A DNA stretch of 61,179 nt, counting the filler, from Basidiobolus ranarum (taxonomy: Eukaryota), in the NCBI GenBank assembly GCA_040143965.1. It is 8 parts of 8 records of this genome, joined end to end, with 100 filler letters (N's around TTAATTAATTAA, not from the genome) between each part and the next. Parts side by side here need not be neighbours in the genome. Positions count along the whole stretch, not along the records: positions 38,347 to 45,894 come from JASJQH010007979.1; 7 more parts are not named here. One strand, written 5' to 3'. Below, piece by piece: positions 7,579 through 52,725 of this stretch. The notes below the pieces were generated by a model. The model made no database searches. It was not told where the DNA came from and was given only the letters and a program-made list of their open reading frames with translations. A program made the translations under genes and the position numbers. The number at the start of each line of letters is the position of its first letter. The stretch's first letter is position 1.

Positions 7579-7678
7579 NNNNNNNNNNNNNNNNNNNNNN
7601 NNNNNNNNNNNNNNNNNNNNNNTTAATTAATTAANNNNNNNNNNNNNNNNNNNNNNNNNNNNNNNNNNNNNNNNNNNN
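7579..7678. other. Artificial 100-bp contig linker (N44-TTAATTAATTAA-N44); also at 15255-15354, 22924-23023, 30591-30690, 38247-38346, 45895-45994, 53540-53639
   Basis: Seven identical linkers with a six-frame stop core; the flanking segments decrease monotonically in length. Confidence 0.97.
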
Positions 7679-38346: not shown

Positions 38347-38902
38347 TAACCTGGAGTAAAACTTTGGTTTCAGATAGTTTTGCATTGTTTCCTTCTCCTA
38401 CAACAGTGTCCCAAAGTCCTTTTTATTGCAGCAGCATTTTCAGTTTAATTTTCCAAACTTGATTATTGGTTCCATCCAATTTTTCAGAAGAGGGAAAAGT
38501 TCCATAAATATGAGATATAGACATTTCAAGGAGTGCAAGCTCAGGGCTCATAACGTGTTAAAGTATATGGGAGCCTGTTGGAAGTGGCTTGGAGAATTAG
38601 AGGAATGGTGGCTTTCACTTATTGATTTATTGAGTAGAAAGTTGACATTTATAGTTTTGTTAAGATGTAAACAAACAAACATGTAGAATGTGCTAAGGAA
38701 GGTCCCAGGAACATGTGTGCACAGCTTGGGGCTTCTAGCACAGGTTTGAAAGATCTATATATCTGAGAACTTCTAAGTTGGTAAAAATATTCAAAGTAAA
38801 TTCCAATTGAGAATAATGGATAATATCTTAGTGAATTATAGGATAACTAAGTACTAAGCTATATATGACTATATAGGTGTTTAGGCAATGCTATTTTCAA
38901 CA
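38347..38902 (-). mobile_element. 5' end of a copia family B element: 5' LTR (38556-38902), PBS (38544-38555) and gag start
   Basis: LTR TGTTG..TTAACA, followed on the minus strand by CGTTATGAGCCC (copia-type half-tRNAiMet PBS), then EKLDGTNNQVWKIKLKMLLQ*KGLWDTVVG (copia gag N-terminus). Confidence 0.82.
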
Positions 38903-38904
38903 TA

Positions 38905-41301
38905 TACAAGATACACTTAGGTCTACTTTATGGGAAAAAAAGAAGTAGCTCTCTTTTTCTTTAAAGACATTCAAACATTGGTGGAGACTGAAGCCAGAGC
39001 TAAAATCAAGAAAATACATATTGATAATGGTAGAGAATATACTTCAACACTATTTAAGCATTTTGCAAAGTTAATGGAATTAAGCAAGAAACTACTGCCT
39101 CCAGTTCACCTCAACAAAATGGAGTTGCTGAAGGAGCAAACAGCACTATAATCAAAATGGCCAGATCCATGATAAATGCACAAAATTTATCTCATAACTT
39201 TCAGGCAGAATCTGTTGCTACAGCTATATATCTGAAGAATAGAAGTTTTACTACAAGTCTGTCTAGCTCTACACCATATCAAGCTTGGTTTGTAGTTACA
39301 CCTGATGTAAAACATATGAGGATCTTTGGATGCATTGCTTATGTCAAATTATGATCAAAAATTGGTCAAAATTTGGTCCAAAAATTAAGAAATGCATATT
39401 TCTGGGTATTGTACCCAAGCTAAGGCCAACAGACTCTATGACACCAAAACTTCAAGGTTAATCAAGACCAGGGATGTTTTGTTTGATGAAAATGAGAATT
39501 TTCACCCAAAATGACCTCAGATGATAACAAAAATCAATTTTCTCCTGATCCAATCATGCATATTAATTCAGACCAAAACAATGAATAAAATTGCATTTCT
39601 GTGGACTCTTCAACCAAAATTTGGCCTACTGAAGTGTCCAATACAATACAATATATTAGCTCATTATACATCAAATACAAACTACTTATGAGTTTATTAT
39701 ACATCAAATGGAAGTTAAAACTGCTTTTTTAAATGGTGAGCTTGCTGAAAAGATGTGAATTGACCATCCAGATGGATTTGTGGACCCATAAAACCTTAAA
39801 AAAGCTTGCAGACTCTGGAAAACACACTATGGCTTAAAACAATCTCCAAGAGCTTGGAATAGCAAAATAGATGCTTTTTTAGAAACACTCAGATTCCAAC
39901 AGAGTACTGCTCATTATAGTATCTACTTCAGGTCATATAAGACAAATCCAATTTTATTAGCCTTATATGTAGATGACCTTATTATAGCAACTAATCACTT
40001 GAAGACTCTGGAGAAAATCAAATCCAGCTTATCTGCCAAATTCAAAATGACTGATCTTGGTGAACTGGCATACTATCTTGGAGTCCAAAATAAGATCAAT
40101 AGAATTCCCAAAACAATAACTTTAAACCTGTCTAAGTATATCCTAGATATACAAAAGAAGTTTAAAATGGAAGAATGTAGTCCAGTATCTATCCAATGGA
40201 GACAAATCTTACTTGACCAAAAATGGCTTAAATCAGATGTTTTTGGATTCAAGTGAAAGTCAGAGATTTCCTTATCAATATATAGTTGGCAGTTTGATGT
40301 ATATCATGGTTGGAACATGGCCAGATATTGCATATTCTGTGGGAGTTATGTGCCAATATCTTCAAATTATAGATCTATTCAAATCATAGCAGTTGAGTGG
40401 ATTTTCAGATATTTGAAAGGTACCATTGATCCATGCTTAAAATACACATGTACTGGATCAAACTTTGGTCTGATGGGATATTCAGATGCAAATTGAGGAA
40501 GAGATATTGAAAACAGAAGATCTACAATAGGATACTTATTTCTTTGTTGTAATGGAGCTATTTCTTGGAACGCAAAGAAACAATCTACCATAGCACTTTC
40601 AACAACAGAGGCAGAATATATGGCTGCCTGTAAGGCAACAAAAGAAGTAATATGGCTAAGAAAACTCTTAACAGATTTAGGTTATTCTCAATTTTCACAA
40701 ATACAATATTTCATGATAGTCACAGTTATATCAAATTAGCTAAAAATCACATGTTTCATAGTTGAAGCAAACATGCAGATATTAGACATCACTTTGTTAG
40801 AGAGACTAGAGAGAATAAGCTTATTGACTTAACTTATTGCTTGACAAAAGACATGATTGCTGATTTATTAAACAAGCCATTAGCTAGACAGAAATTTGAG
40901 AAATTTAGACCTTCCTGAGGATTAGTTTATATGACTATTTATTCGAGGTCACAAGTTGCAATTAGCATTGCCTCAACACCTATATAGTCATATATAGCTT
41001 AGTACTTAGTTATCTTATACTTCACTAGGATATTATCTATTATTGTCAATTGGAATTTACTTGGAATATTTCTACCAACTTAGAAGTTCTCAGATATATA
41101 GGTTTTTCAAACTTGTGCTAGAAGCCCTAAACTTTGCACACATGTTTCTGGAACCTTCCTTAGCACATTCTACAAGTTACTTTGCTTACATCTTGACAAA
41201 ACTACAAATATCAACTTTCTACTCAATAAATCAACAAGTGAAAACCACCAATTTCTCTGATTCTCCAAACCACTTCCAACAGGCTCCCATATTCTTCAAC
41301 A
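38905..41301 (+). mobile_element. Decayed copia element (integrase-RT-RNaseH) with family B 3' LTR (40954-41301)
   Basis: DNGREY, PQQNGVAE, HMRIFGCIAY, QMEVKTAFLNG, LYVDDL, MTDLGE, ALSTTEAEY, DIRHHFVRE; multiple stops and an internal deletion. Confidence 0.9.
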
Positions 41302-42603
41302 AAATCCCCATGAGCATAGTGAGTGATATCATAGCTCAATATGGAATAAATACATACTGAGCTACATTTGACTATATAGATGTTTAGGGTATGTTAATTT
41401 CCACAAATACTACTAGCGTGCCAAGCTACAAGTATCCATTAAATTTACTTCACTACAAGATATTAATGGTTGCATATATCTCTCCATTAAATGGTCAAGT
41501 TTGAATTAAGAATATAGCATTCTCCTCTTAACTCTCCTTAAATGTTTGAAGCCTCAATGAAACCCAAAATAGCAGAAAATTGAAGAACCGTTATGGTCAT
41601 GATGATGCCATCCTTCAATAGATCATATAGTGTATTTTCAAACCCTATATTGGGTGAATAAAACTAGAGAATTGGTTTGAATGCTAGCTTCTGAAGTGTC
41701 CATACACAGCGATAGAAGCACATATATTTGTGAACACAATGTGAAAGGATGTTGCAGAGGCATCTCGCCTTCCCTCACTACTCTGTCACTCTAAAAAATT
41801 GACATCCCTTCGAGCTGCAGTTGTTAGGCCAAGATGAGGTAGTGAACATCGTCATGATGTAACTATAGAGCCTTATATCGCCTTAAGAATAGACGATGCC
41901 ACATCACGCGCAAACGTCAATAATATTATAACCTTGATTTAAACTCACGCTAACAAATCTCATCAGATTGACTGAGTTAAAATTTCCACTTGAAGCAGTC
42001 ACATCTCTGCATTCTAATCAATTTTGAAATTCCGGGAAAATCCCAATGCGATTGTCCCAGTTCACCGTGCATGCATAGAAAAAAGAAAACAGCTCAATTT
42101 AGTAAAGATCGAACCTTAAGGCACCAACTACTTCTTATTCTAAATAGGTAGTAGGGTAGATCGGGGACCCGTCTATAATCTGTAGAGTAACAGCGAATCC
42201 GTCACTGATCGGCCACATTTTTTGATGACATTCGGAACTTAACAGTTACACGGTAATATTTTTTTGTACTAACTGGGGTAACCCTAAATGAAATCACACG
42301 TTTGGGTACCAAGTTGGAAAGTAACACTATGATGGCATGATTTGCCGCGAATATTCTTAGAATTAGATGGAAAATATTCCGATATTGAAGCATGTGGTTG
42401 AAGTTAGTAAGTGGCTAGAGTTTAAATTGCGTAGGCTACTTTTACTGATTGAAAACAAACTGCAGAAGGAGAAAAGGCAGAATTAGGGGCATTGTACTAG
42501 CACGCCATTTCGATATATGATACTGGTAGGAATGTATTGGATCCGTAATTGAATACAAATGATTGGAATTTAATGAATTAAGTACTATTACGTATATTAT
42601 AAT

Positions 42604-44649
42604 TTAATGATCGTCGGATTTCAAGTTATTTACCCAATCCTTCTCACGACGGTTATCATGGGTAATCTCTACTTCCGTCCCACTCTCTTCATCATCTTCG
42701 AGTGATTCAGACTCCTTATAGGCATTGTTGTATGTTGGCCATGAAGAATTGTCAACTCTGATGTAGTTTAAGTTAGCCGCCTTGGGCTTACCTTCAGCTT
42801 GCATCTCAAGGTCTGTATCGCACGTACAACTGCAAAAATTCTGTTTGAGTATATCTCCGTAAATTATAGCAAGCGGAAATATGCCAATGAGAAGTACAAG
42901 CCAGCCGAGTGGCGTATCTAGTAAAGTACACAATAGGCGTCCTACGCCAACTATGAGCACTATGATCCAAGGAATATGGATAAGTACGTGGGATGTTCTT
43001 TCAAACAGCGAGTCTCCTTTTCGCATTTCGCTAACAGAGCGAGCAGAGGTACCCCATTGAGTTACATAGGGAGTAAGCATTGCATATATCTTGGCTGGAA
43101 TGAGAAAAAAGAAATAATAAAATCCATAGATAGAGAACAAGAAGAAGTCCAATCGTGCATACAGCACCCATGGGGTACACAAAAGGGGAATACGAAGACC
43201 TTCTTGGCATAATCTACTATCGGTAACGTGTTCATCAATGTTTTCATCCTTGCGTACCAACTTTAATGTAACGATGAAGGCGTAGAGAGCTCGAATAAAG
43301 CCAACTGCCCAAACAGTGACTAAAAAGACCCCTAATCGGGTAAGACTGTAGGTTCCGTAAAGATACGCTAAAGCGTTGTATGCTAAAATGAATGGATACA
43401 ATGCTTGAATACACATCTCCACACACAGCCATGGAGAATGAAGGATGTAGACTTGAGGAAACCAGAGAACCTCTCTGTAAAACGATTTACCCCATCTAGT
43501 TTGCTGTTTGATCCATCGAACTACGGTGGCCGGTGCATCCGAGTAGCAATATGCATGATGAGTATAGAGGACCTTGAGGTTATTATTGAGAACTAAATTA
43601 GTAAGGTGGCGATCGTCACCAAAGGTAGTTTCGGTATTGGCAAACTTCTGAGTGACCCAGGAACCTAGGATAATTCGAAGTATACGGACATCGTAAAGGC
43701 CGAGTGGGCCACTGACGCACAAAACTCCTTTATTGAATGACTGGCAAGCACGTTCAATATTGAAAGCAAACCAATAGCGCAGAGAGCACATTCGTGCCAA
43801 GAAACTATCTTTTTTGTTCCAAATCTTGACATCACCTGTTACTGCTCCGACATCGTTTTCACATTGAATACACTTGACTAAATGACCAATCGCATCTTCG
43901 TCGACGAGAGTATCAGAATCGGTTGTAAATAAGTAACCATCACAGTGGAAGCCTTCGAGCGCCATTAGAAACCCAGTAAACATGGCAATGCGTTTATGAC
44001 CGTGTGGCTGAAGAAAGCAAATTTGTTCGAAGGACTCAAGATCGTATGCTTTAGATATGTATCGAACATCCTCGCTTGTGGATTTCCAGGCACACTCCTC
44101 GGCCTCCTTAGCAGTATTGCCACCTTCTAGAGCTTTGAGATACATGCGCTTATAAACTGTGGCGATACTCTCTGGGAGAGAAACAATGCATCCTTTCGGA
44201 AACACTCGCATAAACTCTTGAGCCATTTCTTCATCAGCCTTTTCATCGCCATCACAAACTGCAATCACTTTCTTCAGTCCTGAATAACTGGATCTTTGGA
44301 GGCTCTGAAGAGCAGCAGACCATGCGCTAATCTCTTCTCGATAACCGACAACCACGGCAATGACTTCTTTGGTATTCTTGGAATCTAATGGAGTTTTGGC
44401 TATTCTGTTCATCCGAACACGATTAAATGTTGCCAAGGAAGCTTGAACAACAAAGAAGGTGATAATGATGAGACCATATAAACCAAGGGTGATCCAAGAG
44501 GTACTGGCAACATTAACCTCTAAAATTAAACCAACAATTACCGCGGCGACGAAGCAGGGGCCTAATACAACCTTTAAGAAGGCATATAGGTAGAACCAAA
44601 CTCCAGTAGGACGAGGTGGTGGATATGGCTTTACCTCCTTAAACGACAT
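42604..44649 (-). CDS. Hyaluronan synthase-like processive GT2 glycosyltransferase, 681 aa, intronless
   Basis: DGD, HKR, DSDT, SLRYWFAFNIERACQS, CVSGPLGLY, GDDRHLTN, QQTRWGKSFYRE, WGTSAR; two N-terminal and several C-terminal hydrophobic segments. Confidence 0.85.
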   Translation of the reverse strand: MSFKEVKPYPPPRPTGVWFYLYAFLKVVLGPCFVAAVIVGLILEVNVASTSWITLGLYGLIIITFFVVQASLATFNRVRMNRIAKTPLDSKNTKEVIAVVVGYREEISAWSAALQSLQRSSYSGLKKVIAVCDGDEKADEEMAQEFMRVFPKGCIVSLPESIATVYKRMYLKALEGGNTAKEAEECAWKSTSEDVRYISKAYDLESFEQICFLQPHGHKRIAMFTGFLMALEGFHCDGYLFTTDSDTLVDEDAIGHLVKCIQCENDVGAVTGDVKIWNKKDSFLARMCSLRYWFAFNIERACQSFNKGVLCVSGPLGLYDVRILRIILGSWVTQKFANTETTFGDDRHLTNLVLNNNLKVLYTHHAYCYSDAPATVVRWIKQQTRWGKSFYREVLWFPQVYILHSPWLCVEMCIQALYPFILAYNALAYLYGTYSLTRLGVFLVTVWAVGFIRALYAFIVTLKLVRKDENIDEHVTDSRLCQEGLRIPLLCTPWVLYARLDFFLFSIYGFYYFFFLIPAKIYAMLTPYVTQWGTSARSVSEMRKGDSLFERTSHVLIHIPWIIVLIVGVGRLLCTLLDTPLGWLVLLIGIFPLAIIYGDILKQNFCSCTCDTDLEMQAEGKPKAANLNYIRVDNSSWPTYNNAYKESESLEDDEESGTEVEITHDNRREKDWVNNLKSDDH

Positions 44650-45994
44650 AAGTGGAGAGAAAAGTAGATATCACTTAACTAAAAATAAAACTTAAATAGA
44701 CCAGTTAGAGCGTAGTAGAAATTCTATAGACAATGGTTGCTTTTATAAGATTTGCCAATACTAGGTAAATAATGTCAAGTTTGGCATACATATATCCTTC
44801 ATGACAAACGAACGAGACTGTATCATGATTTAGCATCACCCCAGCCTATAGTAGTATGGTAGCAGAAAATCTTCGATGGGAACTGACGTAGTTATTGTAG
44901 TACCAGTATGATATTTCTTTGCTGCAATTGGCTTGGGGAATACACTTGCAGAACACATTGTTGAACTTAATTAGCCTTCTTTTGCTATAGCAATGTTACT
45001 CCCAATCTAGTGATCATCGTTCGATTTCCGTCCCATTTTAATCGAAATTTCGAATTTCAGTCAATATCTTCAACTGGATACAAGGAACCATTTTTTTGCA
45101 AGAAAGACAAAACTGTTATCACTACACTGATATTTACCCCTTTGATATTCGCCTGCCTTTATTTCGTTCTTTCAGTAGAGGGGTGAGTGATTATATTGCT
45201 TAATCTTAGAATGCCAGTAAGCTCGACTACCCGAGAGATGTGATTAACTTTAGTTAAAGGCCGCATACCTCGGCATAGGTCACTTCCAATTCCTCGGCAC
45301 AGTTGATATCCATACATATCAATATCACTCATTCGAGAGTGACGATTTAACCTGAAATTGTGCTAGTACAGGATTACAACCGGGATTGTGCTAGTGATCT
45401 ATGTATATCTAAACTGTGTAACAAACCAAAAATATCGCCACTTTGAATTGGGACAACACCTCCGTATTTACCATGAAGTGGCAACAAATATGCTACGCAA
45501 GTGGAGTCTATCACTAGCATGTGTGACCCAAAGATGTCAGCTCTTAATGATGCCGTATAATTATAGACATCTCTAGCCCGATATATTCAGGCATCCTACT
45601 TTCGTAAGAATGAAGTAAAAAAATGGCCAAGTAATTAGGAATTTTAATAACCATCGGCTCTAACGCTAATTCTGCATTGGGCTCCATTGCTTAGCTCATT
45701 TAGAATTCTTTTTTTAGTATGGTATATGAGGTGACTATTAAGTGTATTTTAATTTACAAGCGATCCCCGAGTCAAATGGACAGTGAATAGAGTGCAAATG
45801 GCTAAGAGGAATGCTCAGTTCTCATATATACATTAGCAAATGTCCTGATCGGAGAGTGAGGCCAATTCCACTTCATATAGTTAGGATTGCTTAANNNNNN
45901 NNNNNNNNNNNNNNNNNNNNNNNNNNNNNNNNNNNNNNTTAATTAATTAANNNNNNNNNNNNNNNNNNNNNNNNNNNNNNNNNNNNNNNNNNNN

Positions 45995-49184: not shown

Positions 49185-52161
49185 TCAAATTCCAGCTCTA
49201 ATCAACTCTGCCTTCAGGTGTTTTTGAAAGAATGGAACATATTGATGATTCATTAAAGTGTAGTGAGCGCCTGGTACATCAATGTAATTATTGGGTTTTT
49301 TTGAGAAACCATCCCACTTTTTGAGCATCAAATTTAGCCAGTCTTCTTTCTTTCCGTGTAAAGGTGTAGCGTAGAAGACAGAGACTTGCTCAACATGTCC
49401 ACTGGGTTCATAATTGCGGCCACATAGAAGTAAAGACTCGGCAATGTCCACCCATTTTTCAAGTTGAATAGGATCAATTTGTAGTTCCTTGATTCTCTCT
49501 GGTGAGGCCATGGACCAAACGTAATGGATCTGCTCCGGACGTGTTAAGGTGTGAAGATGAGGGGAAACTCTGGCCGCTTCTTCTTTAGTGATAAGATCCA
49601 AGAAGTAGGATAAATTTAAAAATCCTTCGGTCCAATTTAACTCAAGCATTCTTGGTTTAATATGTGGTGGAATATTCACTAAACCAACCAAGGCAACTCG
49701 TTGATTTTGTGCTTCTAGTCGTTTGGCAATCTCATATGCTACCACTCCACCATAAGAATATCCAGCTACTGCATATGGTCCTTGAGGTTGAGTTTTTCGA
49801 ATAGCAGCCGTGTAGTTATCTGCCATTTCTTCCATGGATTCAAAATAGGTTTGGTTCTCATCAAAACCTCGAGCTCGCAACGCGTAGAATGGTCGTTCAT
49901 TCGCGAAGTATTTGGCCAAGTTTACGAATATAAGGACCTCTCCTACTCCAGGGTGGACAAAGAAGATTGGTACACCTGATCCTGTAACCTGTAATGGAAC
50001 GACTGGATCATAGTTCTGATTAGGTAAACCTCCTTCAGTATTTGATTGAGATGCATCCAAGTGTGAAGCTAGTTCTCGGATAGTTGGATGCTGCATAATT
50101 CTGATGATTGGCCAATTCTATAATATGTAAGGAGTAGTTAATTGGAGAAACATCTTTCTAGCTTAGTAATCATCTGGTTCTTACCTTATCTAGCTTGAAA
50201 TGTTCGATAATCTTTGCTTTGTATCTATTAAGTAACTAGATTAACCCAAATGTCAAATTATGGATCCGAAATTATAGAACTTACTGTACAACCTCTAGTG
50301 AAGAGCCTCCCATACTAAAGAAGTTTTCTTCCGCACACATTTCATCCTTGGCCACTTCGAAAATCTGACACAAGAAAGAAGCCAAGGTAATTTCTGAATC
50401 GGAGATGGGTTTTTTATAGGTCAATACTTTTCTGGCTTGAACAATTTGCTCAACAATTTTCAAGTAATCATTGAATTCCCCTTTTTCATATCGTTGACGT
50501 AACTTCCCTCTTGACAGCTTACCCAAAGAGTTTTTCGTCAAGATACTGCTAGAAAGTGGGGAAATAATGTGTGCGGCTTGTGAGCAAAACAAGATGAGCT
50601 GTTGTTGAATACTGGAATGGGTACGTATAAGAGCCTCTTCATCGGATAAAGAAAAAGTGGGTAGATAGAAAACGGCAATTTTTTCGGTTTGTGAACCTTT
50701 TGGACGGATAGGGCAGACGGCAACGAAGGAAGGGACAATCCCTTCTATGTTTTGTAAAGAAGACTCTAATTCATTACTGTAGTAGTTGACTCCACGGAGA
50801 ATAATGCTATCTTTAGTTCTTCCGACTAATTCTAGCTTGCCGTTAGCCAAGTTAGCAGTATCCCCAGTTCTGAACCAGCCATCCTTGGTGAAAGCCTGTT
50901 CATTCGCATCGGGATTATTGTAGTAGCCTTTGAAAAGTTGAGGACAGGTTATTTCCAGATTGCCGCAAGATCCAGTTGCTAATATCTGATCGTCATCATC
51001 TACGACTCTTAAGCATAATCCATCGGAAGGAGAGCCCAAACTGGCAAACTCCTTTCCAGTATCATTGTATGGATGTTGTTTGTTATAGATGCAACCAGCA
51101 CAAGTCTCAGTCATTCCAAATCCTGGTGTAATAATCCCTTTAAACTCTGTCTTGGCTTCTTCCAATGTGAGTAGGAGCTGCTTTCCCAAATCCACCAAAT
51201 TAGCCTCTCCTCCGGAGTTGATGCGTTTCAACTTGGAAAGATTGTATAGTGGTAATTGGGAGGAAGCTGCCTGTAGCTTATTCCTTAGATTCTTTTCGAT
51301 ATTGGCAAGTAGAAAGTTCGGGGCAAATGTAAAGGCTACTCCGAATGCCTCACTAATCTCCAAGAGGGTCAGTGGTTCCAGCGTAATCACCGATGCTGCT
51401 ACTTGAATTTGGTTTGCTCCAGCTGCAATTGGGGTAATGTGATTTTCAATGAGTCCAGCCACATGATCGCATCCGACCCAGTTCATTAAAGTGTGGGTAG
51501 ATTTAAGGTGGTAATCATCGACTTTAAATTTGATGGCAGCAAGCACATTTGCATGTGTAAGCTCAACTGCTTTTGAGTTACCTGTAGATCCAGAGGTAAG
51601 CAGCAGAACCGCTACATCATCCTGAGTATCCTTGTTATTGAAATCGAGAGACAGTGAGGGTTCAGGTTCACTCGAGTTAGTATTTGCCTCAACATCTTTT
51701 GGTATATTCAAATCGTCAATGAGTTGAACATTGAGATAAGGCACTAATGAAAGAAGTTCACCGTGATCCTTTTGACGGCAAAGAAATATCGGGCTGTTGA
51801 ATAAAGTGTTGAGATGAGTAAGTTCCATCTCTTTTTTCTCGTCATCTCCTTTTAAAGTGCCAAGAATACATGGTATAAATCCTGCCATGAGAGATCCCCA
51901 AAATAGTTCTACTGTATCCTGATGATTATCAAAATACAGTACAACTATTTGATGAGTATGAGTATTTGTGAGCGAACGAAGCTCTTCGCCGATGGCACAG
52001 GTCTTGGTTAAGAGTTTGGAGTAGCTACAGAAAGTTGGATTGGCAATATCAGATGTGGTATTGATATAACGCAGTCCTTGGTTGGGATGATTCCTAGCGG
52101 CGTTGATGAGAACTTCAAGTAAATTCTTGAAGTCGTTGTTGTTGTGGGCTGATTGAGACAT
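49185..52161 (-). CDS. Single-module NRPS-like enzyme A-T-TE (~949 aa; exons 52161-50285, 50224-50185, 50117-49185)
   Basis: A: LLTSGSTGNSKAV, NWVGCDHVA, GFGMTETCAG, GWFRTGD, GRTKD. T: FFSMGGSSLEV. TE: VHPGVGEVLIF, GYSYGG, GAHYTL. Two GT..AG introns splice in frame (2850 nt total). Confidence 0.92.
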
Positions 52162-52725
52162 GTCAGATAACTAATGTGGTAGATGGGTTATTTGACTTAC
52201 AACAGTGAGGTATTTATAACCTTTGCGTACCCTTTGCATGATGGTACTTTTTACTAGCGTTTAACTCGTTCACCGGAATAGTTGATGGCCGTCCAGTCAT
52301 ACTGATAGATTTATTTCACAACTACCAATGAAGGCGCGATACTGTATAGTTTCCATTCTTCATTACTCGATAGTTGTTTGAGTGGAAAAGAAAGTATGAA
52401 GGATAAAAGTGGTAATCAAAGGAAGCAGTTGATTGACAATCACTTAATATGCCCATAAATATGGTCACCATAAGTATTCAGTTAACCGACTAAATAAGTG
52501 GTCAAATGTGATGAGCGCCTTACTTTTCAGCAAATATTCAGAAATTATTTTGCATGCATAGATCCTAGTCATTATCTTGATAACAGTATCTATTTCGGCT
52601 AAGCCATTCAATGAAACTAAAGCTAATACTAATATAAATACTAATAATAAACAACTACAAATACAAAATCATAGTACTTGGAAAAAAGTCGATAGTATGG
52701 CAACAATTAAGATTATTTCTGATCG

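Follow-up and report, generated by a model that had tools for sequence, protein, structure and literature searches.

The stretch of DNA analysed here (the window; 61,179 nucleotides from Basidiobolus ranarum) carries an intact gene for a six-helix homologue of the class-I hyaluronan synthases (HAS). The protein, P0001, is a class-I HAS-like GT2 encoded by a stop-free open reading frame of 681 aa on the minus strand at 42604-44649, and both the frame and all five motifs that an earlier note had cited for it are present in the sequence. We put at about 0.6 the probability that P0001 makes hyaluronan or a close GlcNAc-GlcA polymer; by homology with validated synthases, the product is likely to be hyaluronan or a related glycan, as that note had proposed. 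The parts of the gene and of its contig are as follows.

38347-45894, no strand: true limits of the contig (C7979), from the N spacers; the remaining window consists of other contigs.
38921-40915, plus strand: broken copia remnant, a neighbour only, with integrase, reverse transcriptase and RNase-H-like pieces (RVT_2, E 3e-33); the last piece is presumably RNase H, labelled from motifs where Pfam gave no match.
40955-41301, plus strand: LTR-like repeat closing the copia remnant, from its position and end letters.
42604-44649, minus strand: single-exon frame of P0001, from the frame, motifs, PDB matches and model.
42835-42978, minus strand: membrane helices 5 and 6 (aa 558-605), from the model.
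43039-43056, minus strand: gating loop WGTSAR, spaced as in vertebrates, with two more membrane helices after it, from the model and comparison.
43150-43269, minus strand: insert of 35-36 aa, specific to Basidiobolus, in the link from membrane helix 4 to interface helix 3.
43492-43506, minus strand: QxxRW motif (R385, W386), interface helix 2, from residue comparison.
43540-44364, minus strand: cytosolic GT-A domain, about aa 96-370, with Y103, E105, H216, K219, DxD at 244-246 and switch-loop C311.
43609-43629, minus strand: putative priming loop and GDDR motif with the predicted catalytic base D346, from residue comparison.
43735-43803, minus strand: interface helix 1 with R291, Y292, F296 and R300, equivalent to R287, Y288, F292 and R296 of Xenopus laevis HAS1 (XlHAS1).
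44398-44601, minus strand: two N-terminal membrane helices (aa 17-42 and 52-84) with a GLYG hinge, from the model and residue comparison.

The window is made up of eight separate contigs of about 7.6 kb, with N spacers at 7579, 15255, 22924, 30591, 38247, 45895 and 53540, and because it is a concatenation, gene neighbourhoods that span the spacers are artefacts. On the contig at 38347-45894 no host gene besides P0001 was seen, the broken copia element alone being found there. On another contig, NRPS-like pieces with AMP-binding (629-aa frame) and thioesterase domains lie at 49185-52170 on the minus strand.

Placement of P0001 among the HAS is indicated by both sequence and predicted structure. 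It matches Xenopus HAS1 at E 2e-70 and chlorovirus HAS at 2e-67, and all five of its sequence matches in the PDB are HAS. When its predicted model (pLDDT 79.8, pTM 0.81) was compared with the PDB, structural ranks 1-13 were taken by Xenopus and chlorovirus HAS (E 2e-31 to 2e-24, TM by target 0.72-0.84), while the next match was a cellulose synthase at 2e-11, cellulose and chitin synthases scoring at least 13 orders of magnitude lower. P0001 has the single GT2 domain with DxD, GDD and QxxRW that is expected of a class-I HAS, and the HAS-type membrane architecture is seen in the predicted model only, with hydropathy in partial agreement. Identity to validated HAS is about 30-32%. P0001 is like XlHAS1 (8SMM/8SMN/8SMP) and chordate HAS1-3 in fold, in its six membrane helices and three interface helices, and in the spacing of the gating loop, but it is only about 31% identical to them, carries a 36-aa insert ahead of interface helix 3 and a longer acidic C-tail, and falls in a separate clade. 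From chlorovirus HAS (7SP6-7SPA, 8SNC-8SNE, 9YQ2-9YQ5) it retains the equivalents of Y91, H174, K177, R247, R256, C267, D302, R341, W342 and R348; it differs in that identity is 30%, its gating loop is of the vertebrate type and the two are not sisters.

Published residues were taken from Gorniak 2024 (PMC11750622) and Stephens 2026 (PMC12987647), XlHAS1 numbering being mapped by hand from the P0001-XlHAS1 alignment, while the numbering of the chlorovirus reference (L049) fits 12/12 published positions. Among the XlHAS1 positions named in the available text of PMC11750622, 16 of 20 are identical in P0001, and 25 of 28 chlorovirus-HAS positions are, part of these 28 having been chosen by alignment or recall. 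The residues of interface helix 1, to which acceptor-collar and uronate-binding roles have been assigned in XlHAS1 (PMC11750622), are all kept, so that the uronate arginines (R291, R300) and the GlcNAc acceptor collar (Y292, F296, C311, W386, S389) are complete. The four changes from XlHAS1 are F65 for H72 and D371 for E367, both of which are the chlorovirus state (4/4 rows), R453 for K448, and T341 for the priming-loop cysteine, C337. The cysteine is a usual mark of class I, but its replacement by Ala or Ser in XlHAS1 leaves product formation near wild-type (PMC11750622), so T341 does not disqualify P0001, and threonine is common to 32/34 named Dikarya rows. At the vertebrate H72 channel position, 30/34 Dikarya members (among P0004-P0108) have D or E, a hint of another polymer or another chain length.

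Two further parts of P0001 are shared with its closest kin. The link between membrane helix 4 and interface helix 3 is 55-56 aa long in 3/3 Basidiobolus clade-1 rows, as opposed to exactly 20 aa in 14/14 others among the rows listed; an unspliced intron was considered for the insert and rejected, the segment being coding, its codons differing synonymously from those of two paralogues at 15 and 13 places. Just past the last membrane helix, a cysteine cluster (42820-42834, minus strand) is kept in all three Basidiobolus clade-1 proteins listed and is a possible lipidation site.

Many of the matched residues are common to all processive GT2s, and for this reason 4 NodC, 4 own-genome chitin synthase and 6 Cps1-family rows were used as controls. 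NodC and the fungal chitin synthases share with P0001 the GT2 core, QxxRW, the acceptor tyrosine and the switch-loop cysteine (C311), as well as K219, R300 (sometimes a conservative K) and R385, so that most shared residues do not decide the product. Three positions discriminate: R291 is E in 4/4 NodC and 4/4 chitin synthases (thus glutamate at the R287 position in 8/8 rows), F296 is C in NodC and H in chitin synthases, and D345 is E in both, P0001 having the HAS state at each. Y292 occurs in HAS, NodC, chitin synthase and P0001, and in 0/6 Cps1 rows. The chitin synthases and NodC, which are 21-25% identical to P0001, carry GEDR; the earlier statement that fungal chitin synthases use EDR and QRRRW holds for the four own-genome enzymes checked, all of which have GEDR and QRRRW. 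Genome-wide, about 25 chitin-synthase-like matches were seen, many of them within open frames 800-1,800 aa long.

A chitin or chito-oligosaccharide synthase with NodC-like activity in a HAS-like protein might still be suggested by the best Pfam match of P0001 (Chitin_synth_2, E 1e-15), by its best NCBIfam match (NodC, TIGR04242, 139 bits) and by a report that HASs can make chitin oligomers (10.64898/2026.02.21.705424). This reading is improbable, as 139 bits is far under the NodC cut-off of 550, the motif is GDDR rather than GEDR, all three discriminating positions are HAS-type, and NodC and chitin synthases branch apart. Identity with a fungal chitin synthase was itself rejected, P0001 having neither the EDR and QRRRW motifs nor a place in the chitin-synthase clade.

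The enzymes represented by Cryptococcus Cps1 and ZtGT2 are also fungal GT2s with a GDD motif and the first uronate arginine, but they form a far-off long-branch clade and are without the Y/F/R collar. Three membrane helices have been reported for Cps1, which is without helices 5 and 6 of the vertebrate and viral architecture (10.64898/2026.02.21.705424), as opposed to the six of the P0001 model. A Cryptococcus Cps1-family query (P0386) returned no alignment with P0001. That P0001 is itself Cps1 was rejected: Cps1 groups elsewhere, and six separate Cps1-type polysaccharide synthase genes (L011-L016) are present in the genome, five of them full single ORFs; one (L011) is 65% identical to a Cryptococcus protein, and the Cps1-type family is expanded in B. 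meristosporus too. Trees, discriminating residues and the 13 best structural matches thus bear out the earlier view that P0001 is HAS-like and not a chitin synthase, NodC or Cps1.

The best relatives of P0001 are in B. meristosporus (77%) and B. ranarum (75%). Of 458 matches found, 119 non-self ones were listed, and the 60 of these with an organism name are all fungal (2 Basidiobolus, 34 Dikarya, 24 Mucoromycotina); proteins auto-annotated as fungal 'hyaluronan synthase 2/3' belong to this same family. Further searches add chytrids, Gonapodya, Neocallimastigomycota, Endogonales and many Mortierellaceae, so that the relatives range from chytrids to Pezizomycotina, and other zoopagomycetes were absent among the matches listed (best 120 of each search). 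HAS-like relatives also occur in chordates, in giant viruses and as more distant prokaryotic proteins. A single-protein scan of viral contigs gave three pattern matches, none confirmed, while an alignment-based scan gave 38 loci (L028-L065), all at most 40% identical; among prokaryotes, 140 of 169 candidates were confirmed and the best 80 kept (L066-L145), none of them close. Among giant-virus contigs HAS-like genes are frequent, as they are among many uncultured bacteria and archaea, and a HAS-like copy on a Lactococcus plasmid adjoins a nucleotide-sugar dehydrogenase gene.

For phylogeny, a 199-row FastTree was built without representatives shorter than 440 aa or lacking the two motifs; a careful tree was restricted to 60 of those 199 rows, leaving out Cps1 and chitin synthase, and a quick tree had these two added as long-branch outgroups. 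A eukaryote/giant-virus clade (100/100, rooted on NodC and prokaryotic rows) contains P0001 along with the HAS of chordates and chloroviruses, while NodC and most prokaryotic HasA-like rows fall outside it. The GT2 phylogeny that had been proposed as a check thus sets NodC, chitin synthase and Cps1 apart from P0001. In the careful tree P0001 joins Dikarya (100/100) and then Mucoromycotina (99/96); in the quick tree the root is unstable and the deep order changes, Mucoromycotina no longer being joined to Basidiobolus and Dikarya. Relationships among the deep fungal, chordate and viral HAS-like clades vary between trees. By AU test, grouping of P0001 with chordates (p 1e-4) and with chlorovirus-type HAS (p 1e-80) is rejected, as is the species-tree grouping of Dikarya with Mucoromycotina (p 8e-6). 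Three rows, P0200, P0205 and P0252, branch just outside chordate HAS.

L002 is a second intact single-exon copy in the genome; it is 75% identical to P0001, and bestrophin, transporter and G-alpha genes share its 34-kb contig, so the HAS-like family resides in fungal DNA. Two partial copies (L003, L006) and at least four that stops or frameshifts have disrupted are also present, and two paralogue proteins of the genome are identical to records labelled B. ranarum. Between P0001 and L002, dN is 0.18 and pS 0.745; synonymous sites are saturated, dS being undefined in one of four pairs, so the ratio of about 0.05 is an approximation. The two genes are old duplicates under purifying selection. Two distant homologues, L007 (C829) and L008 (C7491), have one intron each, of 83 and 70 bases, at the same place after the DxD motif. 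They belong to a second, Mortierella-like clade of the HAS family and group with Mortierella at 100/100; in both, W replaces the first uronate-binding arginine, and the frame of L008 stops ahead of the gating loop.

On these trees, the P0001 family is old in fungi and patchy and appears to have been repeatedly duplicated and lost, and ancient paralogy with differential loss is the preferred account of its history. An old transfer within the fungi, between the Basidiobolus lineage and Dikarya, would also fit the joining of these two at 100/100 and the rejection of Dikarya with Mucoromycotina, and Pezizomycotina are nested among basidiomycete rows (smut-related ones; 100/97). Such a transfer is unlikely, since Basidiobolus is sister to Dikarya rather than nested within it, and so no donor is indicated, while two deep clades are represented in the genome, one with Dikarya and one with Mortierella and Endogone, by which ancient duplicates are already demanded. 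Of the origins offered by the earlier note, its fallback, a patchily inherited fungal family, is the one that is supported. Nor does P0001 qualify as a simple one-to-one orthologue, the gene tree being in conflict with the fungal species tree.

The single exon of P0001 and the copia remnant 1.3 kb away could be read as signs of a recent transfer, with an animal host, a giant virus or a bacterium as donor, or of retroposition driven by copia. The distance is right, the LTR-like end at 41301 being 1,303 bases from the stop codon of P0001. The repeat at 40955-41301 may be an LTR, judging from its position and end letters, and an inverted copy (91% complementary) lies at 38556-38901, so that a pair of about 350 bases brackets the remnant. 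P0001 is outside this element, on the opposite strand, and past its stop codon there is no poly(A) run. Copia sequences abound, with 2,755 first-look candidates for the reverse transcriptase in 65 Mb (150 of 150 scored being above the cut-off), and L007 is likewise flanked by this same element. As an outlier, the intronless gene stands out within the window, where 2 of the 12 stop-to-stop frames that reach 150 aa are longer than 600 aa (a count made without intron annotation of the other genes), but not genome-wide, as 5/6 Cps1-type genes (the sixth ORF being 346 aa in the stretch examined) and 2/2 UDP-glucose dehydrogenase genes are single full-length ORFs. Neither single-exon genes nor copia remnants are rare in this genome, so they do not support recent transfer or retroposition.

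Basidiobolus has been reported to hold many bacterial transfers, 61% of them intronless, but 36% of fungal-origin genes in B. meristosporus are intronless as well (PMC7466969). The at least four scattered broken copies of P0001 imply that the gene was copied repeatedly by some route. Against a recent arrival from outside the fungi stand the two AU rejections, the best prokaryote and viral scores (260 and 275 bits, as opposed to 407 for a basidiomycete), the 77% orthologue in B. meristosporus, and an ordinary composition (GC3 0.41, as opposed to 0.34-0.39 in six other window ORFs). Against retroposition stand purifying selection, the position of the gene relative to the copia element, the lack of poly(A) and the genome-wide abundance of copia; no intron-bearing close parent was found, the two intron-bearing homologues being 34-46% identical and in the other clade. 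Both routes are thus very improbable, and the earlier proposals of lateral acquisition and of retroposition are not sustained. A retrocopy was rejected as a class, P0001 showing no intron-bearing close parent, poly(A) remnant or relaxed selection, as was recent horizontal acquisition, P0001 being neither nested among non-fungal sequences nor absent from relatives.

By homology, P0001 would be a functional plasma-membrane processive GT2 of the vertebrate/chlorovirus class-I HAS clade, which elongates at the non-reducing end. In the proposed mechanism, a GlcNAc primer would bind at W386 inside the collar of Y292, F296, C311 and S389, UDP-GlcA would be read by K219 and R385, and D346 would act as the base. 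GlcA and GlcNAc would be added alternately at the non-reducing end, R291 and R300 holding the uronate while the chain is pushed through the membrane via the enzyme's own channel, and the product may be a minor wall or matrix component. A supply of UDP-GlcA is indicated by two UDP-glucose dehydrogenase genes, which the earlier note had proposed looking for; both are on other contigs, and no cluster of HAS and dehydrogenase genes was seen. A search of the genome for a PL8 lyase gave no confirmed match (0/1), and one for PF14099 gave a single match, below the cut-off and with a stop.

Of four Zoopagomycota examined for it, only B. meristosporus had glucuronic acid in its walls, those of Entomophthorales being without it, and every one of the Mucoromycota examined had it (PMC11170279). 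Cps1-type enzymes or mucoran-type polymers account equally well for this wall sugar and for the dehydrogenases. The polyuronides described in Mucorales are not hyaluronan, and the enzymes behind fungal wall polyuronides go unnamed in the available text of the source (PMC6433966).

An enzyme of the same type and history could have another product, a beta-1,4-glucuronan (mucoric-acid-like) or another uronate copolymer, in which case the P0001 family would be the missing synthase of zygomycete polyuronides. The family is present in 24 named Mucoromycotina rows among the matches listed and in many Mortierellaceae, groups with glucuronic-acid-rich walls (PMC11170279), in which a membrane UDP-GlcA transferase activity is known, the text available naming no gene for it (PMC6433966). 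The channel also varies, as in the acidic H72-position residue of 30/34 Dikarya rows, and in the second Basidiobolus clade the first uronate arginine is replaced by W. However, the GlcNAc acceptor collar is unchanged from HAS, and chlorovirus HAS without a GlcNAc acceptor cannot turn over UDP-GlcA (PMC12987647). Mucoran is alpha-linked and contains mannose (PMC6433966). Such a product is unlikely for an inverting GT2. Another uronate polymer is therefore an unlikely product, and a GlcNAc-GlcA polymer such as hyaluronan is favoured.

No enzyme assay of any fungal member of the P0001 family was found in open-licence PMC papers and bioRxiv. In the text available, a 2023 review gives Cps1 as the sole fungal HAS candidate (PMC10939387), as does PMC9676211, while PMC5122149, PMC5653360 and PMC7053769 concern chitin synthases and Cps1/ZtGT2. 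A 2026 preprint, which searched 910 proteomes with a Cps1 seed at E 1e-20, describes fungal HASs as three-helix (10.64898/2026.02.21.705424). A Cps1-family query reached 5/7 members of the P0001 family tried, at E 9e-5 or worse (assumed database size), and the survey therefore probably missed this family. Fungal HAS homologues have been used as proposed donors of chordate HAS (Crisp 2015, PMC4358723), a role that was disputed in work where a Lichtheimia homologue scored 333 bits (Salzberg 2017, PMC5422933); as far as the available text of both goes, such homologues are treated as BLAST or tree neighbours only, and neither an activity nor a distribution nor a copy in Basidiobolus is given for them. 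Auto-annotated fungal HAS homologues, noted in 2015-2017, are thus known, and what is new is the Basidiobolus member of a broad neglected branch. As one of hundreds, P0001 does not represent a singular transfer event.

It is possible, at somewhat less than even odds, that chytrids, anaerobic gut fungi, Mucoromycota, Basidiobolus and Dikarya share a six-helix synthase of the vertebrate type that has been overlooked, is separate from Cps1 and makes genuine hyaluronan. If so, hyaluronan would be an old and widespread fungal matrix polymer rather than something that vertebrates invented and a few pathogens copied, and subclade variants such as the acidic residue of Dikarya, the lost arginine and the 36-aa insert would alter chain length, sugar choice or regulation. 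Activity of a fungal vertebrate-type HAS would bear on the disputed origin of chordate HAS (PMC4358723, PMC5422933), and the family could supply new synthases for hyaluronan production. A hyaluronan coat, if present in the gut-dwelling opportunist Basidiobolus, would be relevant to its interaction with the host.
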